Source: Escherichia coli (GTDB taxonomy: Bacteria > Pseudomonadota > Gammaproteobacteria > Enterobacterales > Enterobacteriaceae). From it: DNA of 64,000 bases. The position numbers and the translations under genes are program-made. The notes below the pieces were generated by a model, which ran no database searches, was not told the origin of the DNA, and worked only from the letters and a program-made list of their open reading frames with translations. The stretch lies in NCBI RefSeq assembly GCF_044324875.1, contig NZ_CP172185.1; one strand, 5' to 3'. Shown one piece after another: positions 4,046 through 44,627 of the stretch (its first letter is position 1; each line of letters opens with the position of its first letter).

Positions 4046-6184
4046 ATGACACCGCATGTGATGAAACGAGACGGCTGCAAAGTGCCGTTTAAATCAGAGC
4101 GCATCAAAGAAGCGATTCTGCGTGCAGCTAAAGCAGCGGAAGTCGATGATGCCGATTATTGCGCCACTGTTGCTGCGGTTGTCAGCGAGCAGATGCAGGG
4201 CCGCAACCAGGTGGATATCAATGAGATCCAGACCGCAGTTGAAAACCAGCTGATGTCGGGTCCATACAAACAACTGGCTCGTGCTTACATCGAGTACCGT
4301 CACGATCGCGACATTGAACGTGAAAAACGCGGTCGCCTGAACCAGGAGATCCGTGGTCTGGTCGAGCAGACCAACTCCTCGTTACTCAACGAAAACGCCA
4401 ACAAAGACAGCAAGGTGATTCCAACCCAGCGCGACCTGCTGGCCGGGATCGTGGCTAAACACTATGCACGCCAGCACCTGCTGCCGCGTGACGTGGTGCA
4501 GGCACATGAGCGTGGCGATATTCACTATCACGATCTCGATTACTCGCCGTTCTTCCCGATGTTCAACTGCATGTTGATCGACCTGAAAGGCATGCTGACC
4601 CAGGGCTTCAAGATGGGGAATGCCGAGATTGAACCGCCGAAGTCGATCTCTACGGCAACCGCTGTAACTGCGCAGATTATTGCTCAGGTCGCCAGCCATA
4701 TTTATGGCGGCACCACCATTAACCGTATCGATGAAGTGCTGGCACCGTTTGTCACCGCCAGCTACAACAAACATCGCAAGACCGCAGAAGAGTGGAACAT
4801 CCCGGACGCCGAAGGCTACGCTAACTCTCGAACCATCAAAGAGTGCTACGATGCCTTCCAGTCGCTGGAGTACGAAGTAAACACCCTGCACACCGCCAAC
4901 GGTCAAACACCGTTTGTGACCTTTGGTTTTGGTCTGGGCACCAGCTGGGAGTCGCGCCTGATTCAGGAATCTATCCTGCGTAATCGTATCGCAGGCCTCG
5001 GTAAAAACCGTAAAACTGCGGTGTTCCCGAAACTGGTGTTTGCGATTCGCGATGGCCTGAACCATAAAAAAGGCGATCCGAACTACGACATCAAACAGCT
5101 GGCGCTGGAGTGCGCAAGCAAGCGCATGTATCCGGATATCCTGAACTACGATCAGGTAGTGAAAGTCACCGGTTCGTTTAAAACCCCGATGGGCTGCCGC
5201 AGCTTCCTCGGCGTGTGGGAAAATGAAAACGGCGAGCAGATCCACGATGGTCGTAACAACCTCGGCGTGATCAGCCTGAACCTGCCGCGTATTGCTCTGG
5301 AAGCAAAAGGCGATGAAGCCACTTTCTGGAAGCTGCTGGATGAACGTCTGGTGCTGGCACGTAAGGCGCTGATGACCCGTATCGCCCGTCTGGAAGGCGT
5401 GAAGGCACGCGTAGCTCCTATCCTCTATATGGAAGGTGCTTGTGGCGTGCGTCTGAATGCTGACGATGATGTTTCTGAAATCTTCAAAAATGGTCGTGCG
5501 TCTATTTCGCTGGGCTACATCGGCATCCACGAAACCATTAACGCGTTGTTCGGCGGCGAGCATGTTTACGACAACGAGCAGCTTCGCGCGAAAGGTATCG
5601 CGATTGTTGAACGTCTGCGTCAGGCGGTGGATCAGTGGAAAGAAGAAACGGGTTACGGTTTCAGTCTCTACAGCACGCCGAGTGAAAACCTGTGCGACCG
5701 CTTCTGCCGTCTCGATACCGCTGAGTTTGGCGTGGTGCCGGGCGTGACCGATAAAGGTTACTACACCAACAGTTTCCACCTCGATGTGGAGAAGAAGGTG
5801 AATCCGTACGACAAGATCGACTTTGAAGCACCTTACCCGCCACTGGCGAACGGTGGCTTCATTTGCTACGGCGAGTATCCAAACATTCAGCACAACCTGA
5901 AGGCGCTGGAAGATGTCTGGGATTACAGCTATCAGCATGTACCGTATTACGGCACCAATACGCCGATCGATGAGTGCTACGAGTGTGGCTTTACCGGCGA
6001 GTTCGAGTGCACCAGCAAAGGCTTCACTTGTCCGAAATGTGGTAACCATGACGCCTCTCGTGTGTCGGTGACTCGCCGCGTGTGCGGATATTTAGGTAGC
6101 CCGGATGCACGTCCGTTTAACGCTGGTAAGCAGGAAGAAGTTAAGCGCCGCGTTAAACATTTGGGAAATGGGCAGATAGGGTAA
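4046..6184 (+). CDS. nrdD: Anaerobic ribonucleoside-triphosphate reductase (class III RNR)
   Basis: 712-aa ORF, MTPHVMKRDGCKVPFKSERIKEAIL N-terminal ATP-cone; C-terminal glycyl-radical region and Zn-ribbon cysteines (CYECGFTGEFECTSKGFTCPKCG). Confidence 0.97.
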   Translation: MTPHVMKRDGCKVPFKSERIKEAILRAAKAAEVDDADYCATVAAVVSEQMQGRNQVDINEIQTAVENQLMSGPYKQLARAYIEYRHDRDIEREKRGRLNQEIRGLVEQTNSSLLNENANKDSKVIPTQRDLLAGIVAKHYARQHLLPRDVVQAHERGDIHYHDLDYSPFFPMFNCMLIDLKGMLTQGFKMGNAEIEPPKSISTATAVTAQIIAQVASHIYGGTTINRIDEVLAPFVTASYNKHRKTAEEWNIPDAEGYANSRTIKECYDAFQSLEYEVNTLHTANGQTPFVTFGFGLGTSWESRLIQESILRNRIAGLGKNRKTAVFPKLVFAIRDGLNHKKGDPNYDIKQLALECASKRMYPDILNYDQVVKVTGSFKTPMGCRSFLGVWENENGEQIHDGRNNLGVISLNLPRIALEAKGDEATFWKLLDERLVLARKALMTRIARLEGVKARVAPILYMEGACGVRLNADDDVSEIFKNGRASISLGYIGIHETINALFGGEHVYDNEQLRAKGIAIVERLRQAVDQWKEETGYGFSLYSTPSENLCDRFCRLDTAEFGVVPGVTDKGYYTNSFHLDVEKKVNPYDKIDFEAPYPPLANGGFICYGEYPNIQHNLKALEDVWDYSYQHVPYYGTNTPIDECYECGFTGEFECTSKGFTCPKCGNHDASRVSVTRRVCGYLGSPDARPFNAGKQEEVKRRVKHLGNGQIG

Positions 6185-25509: not shown

Positions 25510-26853
25510 ATGTTAAACAGTATTTTAGTCATACTCTGTTTGATCGCTGTAAGTGCGTTCTTCTCGATGTCCGAGATCTCGCTTGCCGCTTCACGCAAAA
25601 TCAAACTTAAACTGCTGGCTGATGAAGGCAATATAAATGCCCAACGCGTTCTGAATATGCAGGAAAATCCCGGCATGTTCTTTACCGTGGTCCAAATCGG
25701 TCTGAACGCAGTGGCGATTCTCGGCGGTATCGTCGGTGATGCGGCATTTTCTCCAGCTTTTCACAGCCTGTTCTCCCGCTATATGTCGGCAGAACTCTCT
25801 GAGCAACTGAGCTTTATTCTCTCTTTCTCGTTAGTGACTGGCATGTTTATCCTGTTTGCGGATTTAACCCCGAAACGCATCGGTATGATTGCGCCAGAAG
25901 CGGTGGCTTTGCGTATCATCAACCCGATGCGCTTCTGCCTGTACGTTTGCACCCCGCTGGTGTGGTTCTTCAACGGCCTGGCGAACATAATCTTCCGTAT
26001 TTTCAAACTGCCAATGGTACGTAAAGATGACATCACTTCTGATGACATCTACGCGGTAGTGGAAGCCGGTGCGCTGGCGGGCGTGTTACGTAAACAGGAA
26101 CACGAGCTGATTGAAAACGTCTTTGAGCTGGAATCCCGTACCGTTCCGTCGTCAATGACACCGCGTGAAAACGTGATTTGGTTTGATCTCCACGAAGATG
26201 AGCAAAGTCTGAAGAATAAGGTGGCGGAACATCCGCACTCTAAGTTCCTCGTCTGTAATGAAGATATTGACCACATCATCGGCTATGTCGATTCTAAAGA
26301 CCTGCTGAACCGCGTGCTGGCTAACCAAAGCCTGGCACTGAACAGCGGCGTACAAATTCGCAACACGCTGATTGTGCCGGATACGTTAACCCTTTCAGAA
26401 GCGTTGGAAAGTTTTAAAACCGCAGGTGAAGACTTCGCGGTGATCATGAACGAGTACGCGCTGGTAGTGGGGATCATCACCCTCAACGACGTGATGACCA
26501 CGCTGATGGGCGATCTGGTCGGTCAGGGGCTGGAAGAGCAGATTGTCGCCCGTGATGAGAACTCATGGCTGATTGACGGCGGCACCCCGATTGACGACGT
26601 CATGCGCGTGCTGGATATTGACGAGTTCCCGCAGTCGGGCAACTACGAAACCATCGGCGGCTTTATGATGTTTATGCTGCGTAAGATCCCGAAACGCACC
26701 GATTCGGTGAAATTCGCCGGCTACAAATTTGAAGTGGTGGATATCGATAACTACCGCATCGACCAGCTGCTGGTGACCCGAATCGACAGCAAGGCCACCG
26801 CCCTTTCGCCAAAACTGCCTGACGCTAAAGATAAAGAAGAAAGCGTCGCGTAA
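25510..26853 (+). CDS. ytfL: CNNM/CorC-family membrane protein YtfL (PaeA, polyamine exporter) with CBS pair and CorC_HlyC domain
   Basis: 447-aa ORF MLNSILVILCLIAVSAFFSMSEISLAASRKIKLKLLADEGN... (DUF21-CBS-CorC architecture). Confidence 0.94.
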   Translation: MLNSILVILCLIAVSAFFSMSEISLAASRKIKLKLLADEGNINAQRVLNMQENPGMFFTVVQIGLNAVAILGGIVGDAAFSPAFHSLFSRYMSAELSEQLSFILSFSLVTGMFILFADLTPKRIGMIAPEAVALRIINPMRFCLYVCTPLVWFFNGLANIIFRIFKLPMVRKDDITSDDIYAVVEAGALAGVLRKQEHELIENVFELESRTVPSSMTPRENVIWFDLHEDEQSLKNKVAEHPHSKFLVCNEDIDHIIGYVDSKDLLNRVLANQSLALNSGVQIRNTLIVPDTLTLSEALESFKTAGEDFAVIMNEYALVVGIITLNDVMTTLMGDLVGQGLEEQIVARDENSWLIDGGTPIDDVMRVLDIDEFPQSGNYETIGGFMMFMLRKIPKRTDSVKFAGYKFEVVDIDNYRIDQLLVTRIDSKATALSPKLPDAKDKEESVA

Positions 26854-27445: not shown

Positions 27446-28000
27446 ATGACCCTACGCAAGATTCTGGCACTCACCTGCCTGCTGTTGCCGATGATGGCTT
27501 CCGCACATCAGTTCGAAACCGGTCAGCGAGTGCCGCCGATTGGCATTACCGATCGTGGCGAGTTGGTGCTTGATAAAGATCAGTTTAGCTACAAAACCTG
27601 GAACAGCGCGCAGTTAGTGGGAAAAGTGCGAGTACTGCAACATATTGCTGGTCGCACCTCTGCAAAAGAGAAAAACGCGACGCTGATTGAAGCGATTAAA
27701 TCAGCAAAGTTACCGCACGATCGTTACCAGACCACCACCATTGTTAACACCGACGACGCAATTCCGGGTTCCGGCATGTTTGTGCGCAGCAGTCTGGAAA
27801 GTAATAAAAAGCTTTATCCCTGGTCGCAGTTTATTGTCGATAGCAATGGCGTCGCGCGCGGTGCCTGGCAGCTGGATGAAGAAAGTTCCGCTGTAGTGGT
27901 GCTGGATAAAGACGGTCGCGTGCAATGGGCCAAAGACGGGGCGCTCACACAGGAAGAGGTGCAGCAAGTGATGGACCTGCTGCAAAAGTTGCTCAAATAA
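27446..28000 (+). CDS. ytfJ: Periplasmic protein YtfJ (DUF1434)
   Basis: 184-aa ORF with signal peptide MTLRKILALTCLLLPMMASA. Confidence 0.92.
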   Translation: MTLRKILALTCLLLPMMASAHQFETGQRVPPIGITDRGELVLDKDQFSYKTWNSAQLVGKVRVLQHIAGRTSAKEKNATLIEAIKSAKLPHDRYQTTTIVNTDDAIPGSGMFVRSSLESNKKLYPWSQFIVDSNGVARGAWQLDEESSAVVVLDKDGRVQWAKDGALTQEEVQQVMDLLQKLLK

Positions 28001-28020
28001 TGGCAATAACATAAATTCTG

Positions 28021-28051
28021 CAAAATAATTTTCCCCTATCGTTATCTATGG
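28021..28051. terminator. Hairpin between convergent ytfJ and ytfI (10-bp stem TTCCCCTATC / GATAGGGGAA)
   Basis: Inverted repeat read directly; second smaller hairpin GAGTTC..GAACTC at 28061-28079. Confidence 0.5.
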
Positions 28052-28088
28052 GATAGGGGAATTAAGCCTCTGAGTTCTTACGCCGAAC

Positions 28089-29000
28089 TCATACTGGTAA
28101 CGCTAGTTGCTTTTTTTTAAACGCCTCAATGGTCGATTTATATTTCTCGCAAATCTTTTCTTCGGTAATATCACTATCTGCGGCCAGATTCGCACTTACT
28201 ATCGCATCCACTTGTTCGGCTAATTCGACTTGTTGGCAACCTGCATTAACCAGAAAATTATAAATAAGAGAGTAATCTTCATCCTTCAAAAAAACAGAGG
28301 AACCATTACGAAAACGTTCATCCCCTCCATAGATTTTAAGCGCAAAGCCCAAAGATTCTATGACTATGGCAAAATTATCATCAATTATTTTTTCGTAAAT
28401 ATACCATCCATCGCATTCTTTAATTCCACCTCCTGGAATTTGGAGGTCAAATTTACCCCGTTTTAATTTGCTTACTATATCCTCCAATAAGGCATAACCT
28501 AAAGACACGTCACCAATCGCCTGGCGAATATAACCTTTAATCCTTTCCGGTATGTCAGACTGTTTTTTCTGCAGAATATCCCGGGCATACAATCTTCTGT
28601 TTTGTTCTAACGGAAACTCGCGGTTTTTGAAATCCATGAATGAGTTATACTCATTTATTGTTATGGGAATTTCTTCGTATTCAAACCCACTGCCTCGCAA
28701 TGTCATTATATATTCGGCACCGTTATCTTTAATGCTGAAACTGATAAGAAACTTATCCATGGCGTGAACATTTTCATTTTTTGATGAAAGCACCTGATAA
28801 CTACTTTTATCAATCTGAGTTGCGCAACGAAAGAACTCCCGCAAAGTTAACAGGCTATCATAATTCGAAATCCAATCTTTTTTCTTAAATGCATGCTGGA
28901 TATTGTTAAAAAAATTGTTTGAATGTGTTTTTGTATGCGATGATTTTACGAATAACTCCACCGCACCAATAAAATTATTGTGTCTGATCCTGGGTAACAT
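28089..29000 (-). CDS. ytfI: Uncharacterized AT-rich protein YtfI
   Basis: 303-aa ORF MLPRIRHNNFIGAVELFVKSSHTKTHSNNFFNNIQHAFKKK...; markedly AT-rich by eye compared with flanking genes; position between ytfJ and cysQ as in K-12. Confidence 0.85.
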   Translation of the reverse strand: MLPRIRHNNFIGAVELFVKSSHTKTHSNNFFNNIQHAFKKKDWISNYDSLLTLREFFRCATQIDKSSYQVLSSKNENVHAMDKFLISFSIKDNGAEYIMTLRGSGFEYEEIPITINEYNSFMDFKNREFPLEQNRRLYARDILQKKQSDIPERIKGYIRQAIGDVSLGYALLEDIVSKLKRGKFDLQIPGGGIKECDGWYIYEKIIDDNFAIVIESLGFALKIYGGDERFRNGSSVFLKDEDYSLIYNFLVNAGCQQVELAEQVDAIVSANLAADSDITEEKICEKYKSTIEAFKKKQLALPV

Positions 29001-29160
29001 ATGGCTACCTTATTTTATTTGGTTATTTTATGTCGCCATTAAATATCTCATTATAGAAGTATAACTATCAAAAAACGCTCATTATTAAAATGTAACTTAT
29101 TAGCAATTGAATTTTTGCACTTTAAATACAATCTCTTTTTATTTATAACTTTTTAGGTTG

Positions 29161-29207
29161 GGAGAAATCAGGATGGCAGAATCAGGAAATACACTGTTTC
29201 TGCCATC
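29161..29207 (-). terminator. cysQ 3' hairpin (10-bp stem GATGGCAGAA / TTCTGCCATC)
   Basis: Inverted repeat immediately downstream of cysQ stop on the minus strand, followed by T-rich sequence. Confidence 0.5.
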
Positions 29208-29212
29208 TGAAT

Positions 29213-29953
29213 TTAGTAAATAGACACTCTGAATCCCGGATTCAGGAACGACTCGCGCGGAGTGTAATCCAGCGGTTTACCCTGCCAGTCGTGAACGTGC
29301 GCTCCGGCAGCTGCGGCCACAGCATGTCCAGCGGCGGTGTCCCAAATATTCGTTGGTCCGAAGCGCGGGTACAGCTGCGCCTGCCCTTCCGCCACCAGGC
29401 AGAATTTCAGCGAAGAGCCGATGGACGTGGTCTGATGTTCGCCAAGCTGTTGCAGATACTCTTTCAGCTCCGCATCTGCATGGGAACGGCTGATAACCAC
29501 CAGCGGCGGGCGCGCATCACGGACCTGAATCTGCTTGCGCACGCCGCACTCTTCTTTCCACGCTTTGCCTTCTGCCGCGCTGTACATTACGTTCATTACC
29601 GGCGCATACACCACACCTAAAATCGGTTTGCCGTGGTCGATGAGCGCAATGTTAACGGTGAATTCGCCATTGCGTTTAATAAACTCTTTAGTACCATCCA
29701 GCGGGTCTACCAGCCAGTAACGCTGCCAGTGCTGACGGACTTCCCAACCGGGAGGATCTTCTTCAGAAAGCACCGGAATATCCGGTGTCAGCGTACGTAA
29801 ACCGTCCATGATAACGGTGTGAGCGGCAATATCCGCTGCCGTTACCGGAGAATTGTCCGCTTTGCTGACGACGTCCATCGGTTTCGTCCCGTCGTAGACC
29901 TGCATAATGGCATCGCCTGCATTCCGTGCAAGCTGGCATACTTGATCTAACAT
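29213..29953 (-). CDS. cysQ: 3'(2'),5'-bisphosphate nucleotidase (PAP phosphatase)
   Basis: 246-aa [25 protein letters not shown]... with inositol monophosphatase-family motifs (WLVDPLDGT). Confidence 0.96.
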
Positions 29954-30142
29954 TTCTCCACCTCGTCTCTGTGAGCGGTGTTAACTTATTGTTTTACTTA
30001 TACCCTATCGTTAATGAATGCGCCAACTGTGATAGTGTCATCATTTTCAAAGCGTAAAATTGTGGCATTCTTCACTGTTCTATAAGTAAGACGTTTATTC
30101 TCCCTTTTCTTTCGTATTCCCGATGATAAAAGGATGTCCCTG

Positions 30143-32086
30143 ATGATTAAGTTTAGCGCAACGCTCCTGGCCACGCTGATTGCCGCCAGTGTGAATGCAG
30201 CGACGGTCGATCTGCGTATCATGGAAACCACTGATCTGCATAGCAACATGATGGATTTCGATTATTACAAAGACACCGCCACGGAAAAATTCGGACTGGT
30301 ACGTACCGCAAGCCTGATTAACGATGCCCGCAATGAAGTGAAAAACAGCGTACTGGTGGATAACGGCGATTTGATTCAGGGGAGTCCGCTTGCAGATTAC
30401 ATGTCGGCGAAAGGTTTAAAAGCAGGTGATATTCACCCGGTCTATAAGGCATTAAATACGCTGGACTATACCGTCGGCACGCTTGGCAACCACGAGTTTA
30501 ACTACGGTCTGGATTACCTGAAAAATGCGCTGGCGGGAGCGAAATTCCCTTATGTAAATGCCAACGTCATTGACGCCAGAACCAAACAGCCAATGTTTAC
30601 ACCGTATTTAATTAAAGACACCGAAGTGGTCGATAAAGACGGAAAAAAACAGACGCTGAAGATTGGCTATATTGGCGTCGTGCCGCCGCAAATCATGGGC
30701 TGGGATAAAGCTAATTTATCCGGGAAAGTGACGGTGAATGATATTACCGAAACCGTGCGCAAATACGTGCCTGAAATGCGCGAGAAAGGTGCCGATGTTG
30801 TTGTCGTTCTGGCGCATTCCGGGCTGTCTGCCGATCCGTATAAAGTGATGGCGGAAAACTCAGTTTATTACCTCAGTGAAATTCCGGGCGTTAACGCCAT
30901 TATGTTTGGCCATGCCCACGCCGTTTTCCCAGGTAAAGATTTTGCTGATATCGAAGGAGCTGATATCGCCAAAGGCACGCTGAATGGTGTTCCGGCAGTA
31001 ATGCCAGGCATGTGGGGCGATCATCTTGGTGTGGTCGACTTACAACTCAGTAATGACAGCGGTAAATGGCAGGTGACGCAGGCGAAAGCGGAAGCACGGC
31101 CGATTTACGACATCGCTAATAAAAAATCCCTCGCGGCGGAAGACAGCAAGCTGGTAGAAACACTCAAAGCCGATCACGATGCCACACGCCAGTTCGTCAG
31201 CAAGCCAATCGGTAAATCTGCCGACAATATGTATAGCTATCTGGCGCTGGTGCAGGACGATCCGACCGTGCAGGTGGTGAACAACGCGCAAAAAGCGTAT
31301 GTCGAGCATTACATTCAGGGCGATCCGGATCTGGCAAAACTGCCGGTGCTTTCAGCTGCCGCACCGTTTAAAGTTGGTGGTCGCAAAAATGACCCGGCAA
31401 GCTATGTGGAGGTGGAAAAAGGTCAGCTGACTTTCCGTAATGCCGCCGATCTTTATCTCTACCCCAATACGCTGATTGTGGTGAAAGCCAGCGGTAAAGA
31501 GGTGAAAGAGTGGCTGGAGTGCTCCGCCGGACAGTTTAACCAGATTGATCCTAACAGCACGAAACCACAGTCACTCATTAACTGGGATGGTTTCCGCACT
31601 TATAACTTTGATGTGATTGATGGTGTGAATTATCAGATTGATGTTACCCAGCCCGCCCGTTATGACGGCGAGTGCCAGATGATTAATGCCAATGCGGAAA
31701 GGATTAAGAACCTGACCTTTAACGGCAAGCCGATTGATCCGAACGCCATGTTCCTCGTTGCCACCAATAACTATCGCGCTTACGGCGGCAAATTTGCCGG
31801 TACGGGCGACAGCCATATCGCTTTTGCTTCACCGGATGAGAACCGCTCGGTGCTGGCAGCGTGGATTGCTGAAGAGTCGAAACGTGTGGGGAAAATTCAC
31901 CCGGCGGCAGATAACAACTGGCGTTTAGCACCAATAGCTGGCGATAAGAAACTGGATATCCGTTTCGAAACCTCTCCATCAGATAAAGCCGCGGCGTTTA
32001 TTAAAGAGAAAGGGCAATATCCGATGAATAAAGTCGCGACCGATGATATCGGGTTTGCGATTTATCAGGTGGATTTGAGTAAGTAA
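30143..32086 (+). CDS. cpdB: Periplasmic 2',3'-cyclic-nucleotide 2'-phosphodiesterase/3'-nucleotidase
   Basis: 647-aa product [42 protein letters not shown]... (calcineurin-like phosphoesterase + 5'-nucleotidase C domain); ORF track starts 3 codons upstream. Confidence 0.96.
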
Positions 32087-41499: not shown

Positions 41500-41720
41500 G
41501 AAACCATACTGATATGTTGACATCCTCCACGCCCTGAAGGACGTGGATCCCTGCTACGTTCAGGCTGTCGCCTAAATCATTTCGGGGGGTTCCTGCTTCA
41601 ACGAGCGGCCTGACTGCACCATCTCTCCACAGGCAAGAACGGCGTGCCCCGCCGCTAAAATGTTACGAGCGCCATTTACATCGGCGTTCGCTGTATATCC
41701 ACATGCCTGGCATCTGAATT
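41500..41720 (-). ncRNA. Predicted omega (re)RNA of TnpB, overlapping tnpB 3' end and right end of the IS; putative guide = flank just beyond RE (about 41501-41516)
   Basis: Inference from established TnpB biology (guide RNA derived from tnpB 3' end/RE); presence of RE hairpin at 41527-41546. No transcript evidence. Confidence 0.35.
41527..41546. repeat. IS right-end subterminal hairpin
   Basis: 5-bp + 2-bp stem with single mismatch and TGAA tetraloop; near-identical copy at other end of element. Confidence 0.7.
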
Positions 41721-42768
41721 TACTTTGTGACAGGCGATTTTCTTTCGCTGTATGACCACAGCACGCGCAACGCTGGCTTGTGTACGCTGGCGGAACAGCA
41801 AGCACCTGACCGCCACGCCAGAGCTGCTTGTACTCAAGCTGGCGGCGCATTTCATACCAGCCCTGATCCAGTATCGAACGGTTTAAACCTGATTTTGCCC
41901 GGACATTGCGCCCCGGCTGGCTGACCGTACCCGCTGCTGACTTTGACATGTTGCTGACCTTCAAATCCTCAATGACTATCATTGCGTGGTTTTTGCTGAC
42001 GGTCGTTGTGACTTTGTGAAGGTAGTCCCTGCGGATATTTGCGATACAGGAATGCAGTCGCTGTATTTTGCGTTTCTGCTTCTGCCAGTTATTGCTGAAT
42101 TTGACCTTGCGGCTTAACTGTCGCTGAAGTCTCGCCAGCTTCTTCTGGTTTTTCTGAAAACTGTTTACAGGCTCAAAGACTGTGCCATCTGACAGCGTGG
42201 CGAGTTTAGCCACGCCAGCATCCAGCCCGACCATTGATGCTGAAGGGTGAACCGGAGTTGATACTTCATTTTCAGTCTGAATACTGATGTACCACTTACC
42301 GCAGGACTGGCTGACAGTGACATTTTTCACAACACCCGTGACCTGACGGCTATTCCGGTAGCGCATCCAGCCAAGTTTCGGCAGAAAAATACGGCTGTTT
42401 TCCTGATCGAGCTTAACGCCCTGCGGGTAGCGGAATGCATCATTCTGTCCCCGCTTTTTGAATCGGGGAAAAGCAGCCCGCTTCTGGAAGAAGTTTTTGT
42501 AAGCCCGCTCAAGGTCTTTCAGTGACTGTTGCAATGGCTGTGAGGGCGAATCTTTAAGCCATTGCGTTTCAGTGGCGTTTTTCCACTCAACCAGCCAGGA
42601 AGCCATTTTCCCGTAAGGGATGTATTTATTACCGGCCTCATGATTCTCATTCTGACGTGCCAGAGCACGATTGAAAACGAAACGACATGCGCCTGCGAAG
42701 CGCCTCATTTCACGCTCCTGTTGACCACCGGGTCTTAACTGGAATTTAAATGCCTGTAGTCGTTTCAC
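41572..42768 (-). CDS. tnpB: TnpB (IS605 OrfB) RNA-guided endonuclease, apparently intact
   Basis: 398-aa [39 protein letters not shown]...; RuvC-I D (MVGLDAGV), RuvC-II E (MIVIEDLKV), Zn finger CACCGH...CQACG and RuvC-III D ([10 protein letters not shown]) all present. Confidence 0.92.
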
Positions 42769-42775
42769 AGGCCAA

Positions 42776-43390
42776 ATGATACTTTGGTCTGTGAGAAAAG
42801 AAACCGATATCCGGCGTGGAAGGCATTGTGTTTTCCTGATGCATGTTCACCAGGTCTTTGTCACCAAATACCGACGTCAGATTTTTGACCATGACGCGAC
42901 AGAAAAACTACGCACTTACTTTTCAAATGTATGTGCTGATTTTGAAGCTGAACTGGTTGAAATGGATGGCGAACCAGATCACGTCCATTTGTTAATTAAC
43001 TATCCTCCCAAACTGGCGATATCCAGTCTGGTAAACAGCCTCAAAGGCGTATCGGGTAGGTTACTGCGACGAGATCGACCAGATATTGCAGTCAGGTATT
43101 ACTACAAAGGCGTTTTGTGGAGTCCTGGCTATTTTGCCAGTAGCTGCGGAGGTGCGCCAATATCCGTCATCCGCCAATACATTGAACAACAGCAAACACC
43201 TGATCAGGTGGAAAACCGCGCCTTATATCCCCGCCCTGAAGGACGGGGTTTTACGGCGCACCGGATAAACCAGGCCAAGCGTATGCTGGTTGATCAAATA
43301 ATATCCCCCAAGCGCAGCAATATTAATATTCACCTGCAATGGGTCGATATCTGGCTTAAAAATATTGTGTTTCCTCCCTTCATCCAATAA
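42776..43390 (+). CDS. tnpA: IS200-type Y1 (HuH) transposase TnpA, ORF reading through the IS left end into flanking DNA
   Basis: ORF contains KYRRQIF, HuH motif HVHLLI and catalytic-Tyr region [11 protein letters not shown]...QYIEQQ; typical TnpA ends soon after, but here no stop occurs until 43388-43390, beyond the end hairpin (which encodes [10 protein letters not shown]). Confidence 0.8.
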
Positions 43391-43832: not shown

Positions 43833-44627
43833 ATGACATTACCAACCACTATTTATTCATTTCCTGCATATTCACCCCGTTTTTCGTCCACCGACAAACC
43901 AGTAAAATTAAAATTTCATCAATACGCACGCGCTACATTACTTTCAAATCGTGGAAGAGATCATAATTGCGATGGCAGACATACTGTTGAGATCCACAAA
44001 CTAGATCTCTCAGACTGGCAAGCATTCAATAAACTAGCGATGGCGTGTAATGCTTACGATGGAATAACAATGAATGGTGATAATTCTTTTGGATGGAACC
44101 ATGAGGCTACATTAGATAATATTCACGCCCAGAAATACAATAAAGCTTACGCGGGTGCGAGGTTAACCGCAGAACTGAAATATTTATTGCAAGATGTCGA
44201 ATCCTTCGAACCCAACAGTAAATACACAATACACGAGGTTGTTTTGGGTCCAGGTTATGGTACTCCAGACTATACCGGCCAAACGATAGGATACGTTGTA
44301 ACCCTTCCTGCCCAAATGCCTAATTGCTGGTCATCTGAACTACCAACAATCGATCTTTATATCGACCAACTTCGCACTGTTACAGGCGTTTCTAATGCCC
44401 TCGGATTCATCATTGCTGCATTGCTAAACGCGTATTCTGATTTACCCCATGATTTGAAAATTGGTCTGCGTTCCTTATCAAGTTCAGCAGCAATCTACTC
44501 GGGTTTGGGTTTCGAGCGAGTGCCGCAGGACCGAGACATAAGGTGCGATCATATGCATCTAACGCCAGCAAACCATCCTGAATTATGGACACAAGAGAAT
44601 GGTGAATGGATCTACTTACGAAACTAA
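43833..44627 (+). CDS. yjfZ: Uncharacterized protein YjfZ
   Basis: 264-aa ORF MTLPTTIYSFPAYSPRFSSTDKPVKLKFHQYARATLLSNRGRDHNCDGRH...; AT-rich upstream region. Confidence 0.88.
   Translation: MTLPTTIYSFPAYSPRFSSTDKPVKLKFHQYARATLLSNRGRDHNCDGRHTVEIHKLDLSDWQAFNKLAMACNAYDGITMNGDNSFGWNHEATLDNIHAQKYNKAYAGARLTAELKYLLQDVESFEPNSKYTIHEVVLGPGYGTPDYTGQTIGYVVTLPAQMPNCWSSELPTIDLYIDQLRTVTGVSNALGFIIAALLNAYSDLPHDLKIGLRSLSSSAAIYSGLGFERVPQDRDIRCDHMHLTPANHPELWTQENGEWIYLRN

Follow-up and report, generated by a model that had tools for sequence, protein, structure and literature searches.

An old single-gene insertion of AT-rich DNA probably accounts for ytfI between the convergent core genes ytfJ and cysQ of Escherichia coli

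How did an AT-rich gene come to lie between two conserved core genes of the Escherichia coli chromosome, and is its product of any use to the cell? We addressed this question for ytfI in a 64-kb stretch of E. coli DNA (the window), in which profile matches confirmed the two flanking ORFs as YtfJ (TIGR01626) and CysQ (NF008182). The original prediction, made from the sequence, held that ytfI and its flanks are AT-rich relative to both neighbors, and windowed G+C, GC3, and ORF z scores all agreed. The composition falls outside the core range, with 35.1% G+C in segment 28001–29212 compared with 51.2% for the whole window. Only 0.1% of all 1,212-bp sliding windows lie at or below 35.1% G+C, and the segment comes within 0.3 points of the lowest of them (34.8%, starting at 28011). 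The ytfI coding sequence has 36.4% G+C vs. 51.9% for ytfJ and 55.5% for cysQ, and the tract directly upstream of ytfI is the most AT-rich DNA of the islet (Table 1). Of the window's 46 long ORFs, none falls below ytfI in G+C (z = −4.9) or in GC3 (0.349 vs. a mean of 0.585; z = −3.3); the codon-adaptation score of ytfI, taken against the genes of the window, is on the low side without being extreme (z = −1.6).

Table 1. Coordinates of the features at the ytfI locus, numbered from the first letter of the window
Feature	Coordinates	Strand	Details and basis
ytfJ, left flanking core gene	27446..28000	+	TIGR01626 (2.6e-92), PF09695 (2.3e-77)
Hairpin in the 3′ coding end of ytfJ	27960..27984	+	Inverted repeat
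Inserted AT-rich segment (ytfI islet)	28001..29212		~1.21 kb; alignment with empty site, G+C
Hairpin 1	28031..28061		Between convergent ytfJ and ytfI; perfect 10-bp stem, 11-nt loop
ytfI	28089..29000	−	303 aa here, 312 aa in K-12; ORF list
ytfI upstream region, likely promoter region	29001..29160	−	23.1% G+C
Shine-Dalgarno-like AAGGT	29007..29011	−	6 nt upstream of the ytfI ATG; read from sequence
Candidate sigma-70 promoter of ytfI	29042..29071	−	TTGATA, 18-nt spacer, TG-GATATT; 9/12 matches, consensus match only
Hairpin 2	29171..29207	−	Core stem 29171-29181 + 29197-29207; extended arms 29165-29185 + 29194-29214
cysQ, right flanking core gene	29213..29953	−	NF008182 (9e-159); junction alignment

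Alignment with an empty site placed the left breakpoint within 27997–28003 and the right breakpoint within 29210–29216. The ytfJ stop codon (27998–28000) and the last codons of that gene lie at the left junction of the insert, and the cysQ stop codon (29213–29215) lies at the right one; where E. coli lacks the insert, the two genes share 11 bp. Before the stop, the C terminus of YtfJ reads QKLLK when the insert is present and HKLINK in E. coli without it. Segment 28001–29212 is a true insertion between ytfJ and cysQ. A further hairpin in the 3′ coding end of ytfJ folds also in the empty-site E. coli locus (z = −1.9) and in Citrobacter (z = −3.2) and is part of the ancestral flank, outside the insert. 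Within the insert, ytfI is the sole ORF of at least 80 aa, and there are no mobility genes. The segment shows no integrase, IS, or tRNA and no clear target-site duplication or terminal inverted repeat, a lack that counts against the explanation we prefer, and the marks of a classical genomic island or integrative element (integrase or recombinase, tRNA/att, direct repeats) are likewise absent from it. The two junctions do share an imperfect AATAAAT-like similarity, which is too short and AT-rich to count as a direct repeat.

We found ytfI in 1,621 of the 5,426 complete E. coli genomes (∼30%), always as one copy, and the segment is missing from the other 3,805 (∼70%). Among the outgroups, 74 of 80 species loci are empty, with 0–29 bases between the last aligned residues; these include Citrobacter, Salmonella, Klebsiella, Raoultella, Enterobacter, and Kosakonia as well as three other Escherichia species. 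No ytfI was detected at any non-Escherichia locus in this set. In empty E. coli and ∼70 other enterobacterial species, ytfJ and cysQ stand tail to tail with their stops overlapping or near-adjacent, and the empty junction sequence is homologous across genera. The predicted horizontal acquisition was, thus, borne out by absence from ∼70% of complete E. coli and from all non-Escherichia species examined, together with a composition far outside the range of the window; the phylogenetic distribution is limited to Escherichia and patchy in E. coli. The same junction has also received other DNA: E. albertii has a pentapeptide-repeat protein there, C. youngae a membrane protein together with a radical SAM/SPASM enzyme, and Kluyvera an S11 peptidase-like gene. 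YtfI has no similarity to any of these three inserts, and that four taxa carry unrelated cargo at this one junction is a minor new finding.

The age of the insert can be read from its divergence alongside its flanks. Diverged YtfI alleles (69% and 78% identity) occupy the same ytfJ/cysQ locus. Between the window and K-12, dS is 0.087 for ytfI and 0.086 and 0.065 for the flanks; between the window and L010, which represents cryptic-clade depth, the values are 0.66 for ytfI and 0.64 and 0.57 for the flanks. Since the dS of ytfI equals that of the flanks up to ∼0.65, the gene has codiverged with them, and the acquisition is old. In the comparison with a third allele, L006, the dS of ytfI (0.36) is somewhat above that of the flanks (0.21 and 0.12), a pattern in which some allele exchange by recombination may have had a part. 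The window allele is 96.8% identical to that of K-12 in DNA and 95% identical in protein. The best match to the window locus is strain AST81, in which ytfI is interrupted by IS1.

The original prediction placed ytfI between two bracketing hairpins. Both are real, but neither is a border of the islet: each lies inside the inserted DNA. The left one exists, although its predicted position (28021–28051) is ∼10 nt too far to the left. Its arms (28031–28040 and 28052–28061) form a stem of −16.7 kcal/mol (z = −3.1) that begins 27 nt past the ytfI stop and is followed on the minus strand by AAAATTATTTTG. This hairpin is conserved in diverged alleles and occurs in single copy only in carriers of the insert (1,619/5,426 genomes). 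The right one was found within the predicted interval (29161–29207), and it folds at −21.4 kcal/mol on the minus strand (z = −6.5) and −24.8 kcal/mol on the plus strand (z = −5.1), with none of 200 shuffles folding as well. Read on the minus strand, it begins 5 nt past the cysQ stop and precedes the promoter region of ytfI; its 34-nt core does not vary across five alleles, among them lineages with flank dS ∼0.6, and it, too, is single-copy and confined to insert carriers (1,622/5,426). A terminator scan called neither hairpin because, despite stable stems, neither has a T run after the stem (the tails are AAAAUUAUUUUG and CCUGAUUUCUCC), which counts against our preferred explanation. We read both as putative transcript-end structures, not as recombination sites: the ytfI transcript probably ends at hairpin 1, and hairpin 2 is probably a 3′-end or insulating structure of the cysQ transcript. 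The two are unrelated to each other, and neither behaves as a repeated palindrome of the REP, BIME, or MITE kind, each occurring once per genome in the ∼1,620 insert-carrying genomes among the 5,426 searched. Rfam gave no match inside the islet.

Two other histories have to be weighed against an insertion in some ancestral lineage of Escherichia. ytfI could have been present in the enterobacterial ancestor and have disappeared from most of its descendants; the pattern would in that case reflect differential loss and no insertion. Its presence in lineages as deep as dS ∼0.65 makes it old within Escherichia, as this history would have it, and its patchy distribution in E. coli requires later loss or replacement by the empty allele. 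However, all non-Escherichia genera examined show the tail-to-tail junction, homologous to the empty E. coli site, and loss would demand many independent deletions, each restoring the same overlapping-stop arrangement. Moreover, the G+C (35%) and GC3 (0.35) are far from the core range, and no ytfI homologue exists elsewhere among 1.84 billion representative proteins; we consider differential loss highly improbable. It is just as hard to credit that the islet is a recent mobile acquisition, such as a phage or plasmid remnant or a small mobile element with the two hairpins as its ends, although foreign composition, the presence/absence polymorphism, and palindromes near both ends would all suit it. 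The codivergence of ytfI with its flanks speaks against this history, as does its occurrence at one locus only, once per genome. The insert has no mobility genes, the mutually unrelated hairpins occur nowhere else in the 5,426 genomes, there is no match in phages, and the matches in the plasmid collection are confined to E. coli records of 0.66–4.9 Mb that are most likely chromosomal.

Upstream of ytfI, the AGGT core of the ribosome-binding site is conserved in all five aligned alleles, as is the TTGATA hexamer of the candidate promoter; a promoter scan found no more sites in the region than in shuffled sequence. The upstream region is 87–88% identical in alleles whose coding sequences are only 78–86% identical. 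Binding of H-NS to the segment, the next element of the original prediction, has been published for K-12: by ChAP-seq, H-NS occupies ytfI, an inserted segment specific to K-12, and spreads from it to cpdB, cysQ, ytfJ, and ytfK, and no such binding is seen in SE11 and SE15, both of which lack ytfI (Higashi et al. 2016, PMC4720273, S10 Fig). That published segment is the same object as ours, a strain-specific, H-NS-bound insertion between cysQ and ytfJ, differing in that the window comes from another strain and carries the 303-aa allele instead of the 312-aa one. The H-NS-bound insert is real but already known since 2016 (PMC4720273); our analysis adds its exact breakpoints, the overlapping stops of the ancestral arrangement, its frequency among 5,426 genomes, its age, the dN/dS values, and, over 1.84 billion proteins, the status of ytfI as an orphan. 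The predicted silencing can be judged from the published binding, by which ytfI would stay mostly unexpressed in ordinary conditions. Of the 10-mer motif to which H-NS binds with high affinity, TCGATAAATT, there are two weak matches in the islet, and the count of this motif over the whole window is at chance, so that there is no enrichment; this counts against our preferred explanation. Low G+C and absence from related strains and species at a conserved locus, both expected of a target of xenogeneic silencing, were found for the segment.

The protein itself gives few clues to what it does. YtfI is predicted to be soluble (34.9 kDa, pI 6.0), with no transmembrane segment (maximum Kyte-Doolittle score 1.28) and no internal repeat. 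Its description as an orphan with no assigned function stood up to every search: scans against Pfam, NCBIfam, PHROGs, and PADLOC gave no usable match, and there was no homologue outside Escherichia. Relatives among 5.8 billion clusters amounted to 18 matches, all from Escherichia or Shigella, and an exhaustive HMMER search of 1.84 billion representative proteins returned only YtfI fragments and one spurious match. Homology to P0034 (E = 1.7e-6 over 14 stretches) was rejected, this being a TPR-like tandem-repeat protein with a score summed over repeats. Two further candidates were dismissed as chance: a match to phrog_3250 (E = 6e-4) that the diverged allele P0010 does not reproduce and a PADLOC match to Cas6b of 40 residues and 17 bits (E = 1e-3), for which no Pfam Cas6 model appeared at E ≤ 1. 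PADLOC-DB v2 held no significant match to a defense system, and no CRISPR array or cas gene lies nearby. A profile search of the PDB yielded nothing at E < 0.9, the only hit being nitrogenase at E ∼1. By tblastn, YtfI had no match in phage records and only four in a plasmid collection, all in E. coli records of 0.66–4.9 Mb, which are most likely chromosomal DNA filed as plasmids. Structure was predicted as well, and AlphaFold2 models were of low confidence (mean pLDDT 38 and 43 from alignments of 7 and 26 sequences). Such models are also what a marginal protein, or one with poor structure, would give, which counts against our preferred explanation, as do the truncated YtfI variants common in the protein database (e.g., a 251-aa cluster with 729 members). 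Nevertheless, pairwise dN/dS for ytfI is 0.22–0.37 at dS 0.09–0.85 (0.01–0.09 for the flanks), and the ATG and ribosome-binding site are kept in the aligned alleles; on these grounds, we take ytfI to be a real gene. As judged from the sequence comparison, YtfI is under relaxed but real purifying selection.

Alternatively, the insert might be inert, with an ORF that is decaying or never functioned and a locus that matters only as an H-NS nucleation site affecting its neighbors. The protein has no homologues, domain, or confident fold, its dN/dS is 10–30 times the flank values, truncated and IS1-interrupted copies exist, the noncoding upstream region is more conserved than the coding sequence, and the published spreading of H-NS to neighbors depends on the insert (PMC4720273). 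Against this reading, which we hold to be unlikely, an ORF of ∼300 codons has stayed open across alleles at dS 0.66–0.85 with dN/dS of 0.22–0.29, and its start codon and ribosome-binding site are conserved. Weak phenotypes have also emerged from two genome-wide screens: a clone overexpressing ytfI survives 3× MIC of HOCl (PMC8228696), and the Keio ytfI mutant is slightly sensitive to boric acid (PMC11502571). Our best guess is that YtfI is a conditionally useful accessory protein. It could, compatibly with an old insertion, be an undescribed stand-alone antiphage or stress-defense protein in a small hot spot of variable cargo, an idea that gains from the unrelated cargo at the same junction in E. 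albertii, C. youngae, and Kluyvera. Single AT-rich, H-NS-silenced, fast-evolving accessory genes are, moreover, a common form for defense genes. We nevertheless find this role quite improbable: the only PADLOC match is the short Cas6b one, without Pfam Cas6 support, no partner genes are present, the other junction cargoes are not defense genes, and no experiment hints at such a role. A broader proposal is also distinctly unlikely, namely that YtfI is a functional, Escherichia-only protein whose fold or activity is in no database (e.g., a stand-alone defense or stress protein) and that its presence and absence form a long-held balanced polymorphism at a site that the overlapping stops opened to repeated insertion; the conserved hairpin after cysQ would then be regulatory rather than a simple transcript end.

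The explanation that we think very likely is that foreign AT-rich DNA carrying a single gene was inserted long ago at the meeting point of two convergent core genes, ytfJ and cysQ. Before that, as in other enterobacteria, the two genes would have stood tail to tail with stop codons overlapping or near-adjacent. In some ancestral lineage of Escherichia, ∼1.21 kb would have been inserted exactly into this AT-rich cluster of stop codons, slightly changing the ends of both genes. Since the ancestral site held no intergenic DNA, ytfI was not born from local noncoding sequence and would have come with the imported DNA. The insert may have brought, or later evolved, a 23% G+C upstream region with its ribosome-binding site, the ytfI ORF, and the two stem-loops, which may end or stabilize the cysQ and ytfI transcripts and keep read-through from cysQ out of ytfI. 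It would then have been inherited with its flanks, and its presence is still polymorphic, with carriers making up ∼30% of the complete E. coli genomes sequenced. Through its high AT content, the insert would nucleate H-NS. In the published K-12 ChAP-seq, H-NS reaches cpdB, cysQ, ytfJ, and ytfK only with the insert in place, and ytfI itself would be left largely silent.

That H-NS silences horizontally acquired DNA of high AT content in Enterobacteriaceae was reportedly described by Navarre, Lucchini, Oshima, and colleagues in 2006. Like known targets of this process, the ytfI segment is accessory, lies 16 points below its host region in G+C, has a very AT-rich promoter region, and is occupied by H-NS in published data. 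Unlike them, it is very small, a single gene without mobility functions; it is old (dS ∼0.65 with its flanks) yet shows no drift toward host composition, and the 10-mer nucleation motif is not enriched in it. Recurrent insertion points between core genes of bacterial chromosomes are known as integration hot spots, and the ytfJ/cysQ junction, which holds four unrelated cargoes (E. coli, E. albertii, C. youngae, and Kluyvera), resembles them. It differs in having no tRNA, integrase, or recombinase site, its target being the AT-rich overlap of convergent stops, and in the size of its cargoes (only 0.9–2.1 kb). ytfI also has the traits of the orphan genes of the E. coli "y-ome" (no homologue outside the genus, no domain, low G+C, raised dN/dS), although, unlike for the others, its origin can be narrowed to imported DNA. 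The locus is a clean textbook case of little importance beyond that: a tiny piece of foreign DNA enters a site without intergenic space, stays AT-rich for a long time, and brings H-NS onto neighboring core genes. As a K-12 gene with no homologue anywhere that is nonetheless under selection, YtfI is, therefore, a fair candidate for an experimental look.

In this window of E. coli chromosome, the segment between the stop codons of ytfJ and cysQ (28001-29212), which carries ytfI, has a G+C content of 35.1% versus 51.2% window-wide. Only 0.1% of 1212-bp sliding windows are equally low in G+C, and the minimum begins at 28011. Among the 46 long ORFs in the window, ytfI ranks last in both G+C (36.4% over the coding sequence, z = -4.9) and GC3 (0.349, z = -3.3), and the tract upstream of it (29001-29160) falls to 23.1%. 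These values bear out the AT-rich islet of the original prediction and place ytfI clearly outside the core-genome range of composition. Just beyond the islet, in the cysQ-cpdB intergenic region, the Rfam family of the ES239 sRNA is matched over its full length (30020-30142, minus strand, 157 bits, E = 5e-32). The window has a second low-G+C patch at 43833-44627, a DUF2686 gene (probably yjfZ; 42% G+C, GC3 0.355) that adjoins an IS element and may be another AT-rich accessory gene; an IS200/IS605-type element lies at 41572-43390.

Features of the ytfI locus, the IS element and other inserts at the ytfJ/cysQ junction
Feature	Sequence	Coordinates	Strand	Remarks
paeA/ytfL	window	25510-26853	+	E. 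coli chromosome gene order
ytfK	window			between paeA/ytfL and ytfJ
ytfJ	window	27446-28000	+
Coding-end hairpin, ytfJ	window	27960-27984		last ytfJ codons
Hairpin 1	window	28031-28061		perfect 10-nt arms, 28031-28040 and 28052-28061
ytfI	window	28089-29000	-
Hairpin 2	window	29171-29207		core
cysQ	window	29213-29953	-
Coding-end hairpin, cysQ	window	29229-29245		last cysQ codons; CTGAATCCGGGATTCAG
cpdB	window	30134-32086	+
TnpB-like OrfB	window	41572-42708	-	OrfB_IS605 and Cas12f1-like TNB domain; IS200/IS605-type element
Y1 transposase	window	42776-43390	+	IS200/IS605-type element
E. albertii insert	locus L014	4556-6059		1.5 kb, 33% G+C; 385-aa pentapeptide-repeat protein
Citrobacter youngae insert	locus L042	4559-6678		2.1 kb; membrane protein and radical SAM/SPASM enzyme
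Inserts of two Kluyvera species	loci L066, L069	about 4556-5460		0.9 kb; S11 D-Ala-D-Ala carboxypeptidase-like gene

Among 5426 complete E. coli genomes searched, the flanks were found in 5418 and ytfI in 1621, always as a single copy; this carriage of ∼30% comes from a collection skewed toward K-12 derivatives and O157:H7 isolates and is not a population frequency. At empty sites, such as that of locus L001, the 3′ ends of ytfJ and cysQ share 11 bp, with zero intergenic DNA. Alignment of occupied and empty sites put the breakpoints at 27997-28003 (left) and 29210-29216 (right). The ytfI segment is thus an insertion with definable borders, and both hairpins lie inside the inserted DNA. Polarity was determined by using YtfJ as an anchor in one genome per species and measuring the distance to cysQ at 80 loci. 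In 74 of these, the two genes' last aligned residues lie only 0-29 bases apart; the 74 include Citrobacter, Salmonella, Klebsiella, Raoultella, Enterobacter, Kosakonia, Trabulsiella, Pluralibacter, and Lelliottia as well as E. whittamii and two further Escherichia species. Because the junction sequence (…CTGCTGCAyAAr…AATAAATAG…) is also recognizably homologous between genera, the empty state came first, and it was within Escherichia that the ytfI segment was acquired. The opposite view, in which ytfI would be an ancestral gene that other lineages have lost, is untenable on the same evidence. Together with the foreign composition and the patchy carriage, the empty junctions uphold the predicted horizontal acquisition.

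A recent transfer is ruled out by the synonymous divergence of ytfI, which in pairwise comparisons follows that of the flanks. Between the window and K-12, dS is 0.087 for ytfI, 0.086 for cysQ, and 0.065 for ytfJ; between the window and locus L010, the values are 0.66, 0.64, and 0.57. The latter distance is comparable with those of cryptic-clade species (E. whittamii, 0.47; Escherichia sp. E1V33, 0.59; E. albertii, 0.80), so insert and flanks have been passed down together from a time before the separation of these lineages. The same place between cysQ and ytfJ is also occupied by diverged YtfI alleles with 78% and 69% protein identity. Searches of phage and plasmid collections never found the insert on a phage or true plasmid. 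In the pair of the window and locus L006, dS is higher for ytfI (0.36) than for the flanks (0.21 and 0.12), which makes some recombinational shuffling of alleles possible. The window's ytfI is 96.8% identical to that of K-12 and 96.0% to that of O157:H7; its allele class is uncommon, with alleles at least 99% identical in 16 of the 5426 genomes and a 100% identical one only in strain AST81 (NZ_AP043641.1), where the gene is interrupted by IS1A.

Five of the 80 species loci hold different cargo at this very point; in a sixth exception, Kluyvera intermedia (L077), ytfJ and cysQ lie 80 bases apart. The membrane protein of C. youngae has a Cys/Gly/Ser-rich tail. No relationship was found between the ytfI segment and the inserts of E. 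albertii, C. youngae, or Kluyvera. The tail-to-tail ytfJ/cysQ junction, this suggests, is a small recurrent insertion point.

The reading frame of ytfI has stayed open over a dS of up to 0.85, with pairwise dN/dS of 0.22-0.37 (cysQ, 0.01-0.02; ytfJ, 0.02-0.09). The gene is clearly under purifying selection, with relaxed constraint. Its ATG is kept in all five alleles, as is the ribosome-binding core AGGT 6 nt ahead of it; the C-terminal tail differs, giving proteins of 303, 306, 307, and 312 aa, and truncated and IS1-interrupted copies exist. YtfI is predicted to be soluble (34.9 kDa, pI 6.0, no hydrophobic segment). It had no match in Pfam, NCBIfam, or the PDB, and its PHROGs and PADLOC matches were at chance level. 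A search of 5.8 billion clusters returned 18 matches, every one from Escherichia or Shigella, and when 1.84 billion representatives were searched exhaustively with a HMMER profile, YtfI fragments and one spurious repeat protein were the only matches. The protein is thus an orphan, as had been proposed. Two AlphaFold2 runs reached pLDDT values of only 38 and 43, and fold comparison was therefore unjustified. Since the ancestral site had zero noncoding DNA, ytfI cannot stem from local intergenic sequence; it was brought in with imported DNA from an unsampled donor.

The strong hairpins said to bracket the islet are both real and far above shuffled sequence (hairpin 1, z about -3; hairpin 2, z = -5 to -6.5, with 0 of 200 shuffles as good), but hairpin 1 had been placed ∼10 nt too far left. 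It lies 27 nt past the ytfI stop and is conserved apart from a single mismatched stem position in the deepest allele. Hairpin 2 begins 5 nt past the cysQ stop, and its 34-nt core is identical in five of five alleles while its surroundings differ by ∼12%. REP- or MITE-type repeats and recombination ends are ruled out, as each hairpin region has a single copy per genome, is confined to the ∼1620 carriers, and is unrelated to the other. Neither hairpin is followed by a clean T-run or listed by a terminator scan. The most economical reading is that they are transcript-end or stabilizing structures for cysQ and ytfI. In empty-site genomes (L001, 1560-1625), the coding-end hairpins of ytfJ and cysQ, the latter containing a rare AGA arginine codon, stand on either side of AT-rich overlapping stops, an arrangement that looks like a compact convergent terminator within coding sequence; Citrobacter has hairpins of different sequence at the same two positions. 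The insertion would have parted cysQ and ytfJ from this ancestral layout. Upstream of ytfI, noncoding 29001-29212 is 87-88% conserved versus 78-86% for the coding sequence in the diverged loci L004, L006, and L010, the reverse of the usual pattern.

The suggestion that H-NS binds this AT-rich DNA is matched by published data. Higashi et al. (2016) use this very locus to illustrate a strain-specific inserted sequence: in K-12, ytfI is bound by H-NS, with signal reaching cpdB, cysQ, ytfJ, and ytfK, whereas all four genes are H-NS-free in SE11 and SE15, two strains without ytfI (PMC4720273, S10 Fig). The islet shows no enrichment of the defined 10-mer nucleation motif of H-NS, and binding must therefore depend on general AT-richness. 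We infer that H-NS silences ytfI. The locus also gave a high-scoring sigma-32 ChIP-chip signal, disputed by authors who regard it as a false-positive artifact (PMC2996942, PMC3870955).

The original observation is thus confirmed and its interpretation supported, and the islet has already been published as a strain-specific insertion bound by H-NS (PMC4720273). What is new is a protein without a relative in any current collection, evidence of selection on its gene, the exact borders and old age of the insert, and an ancestral overlapping-stop target that has been reused in other taxa.
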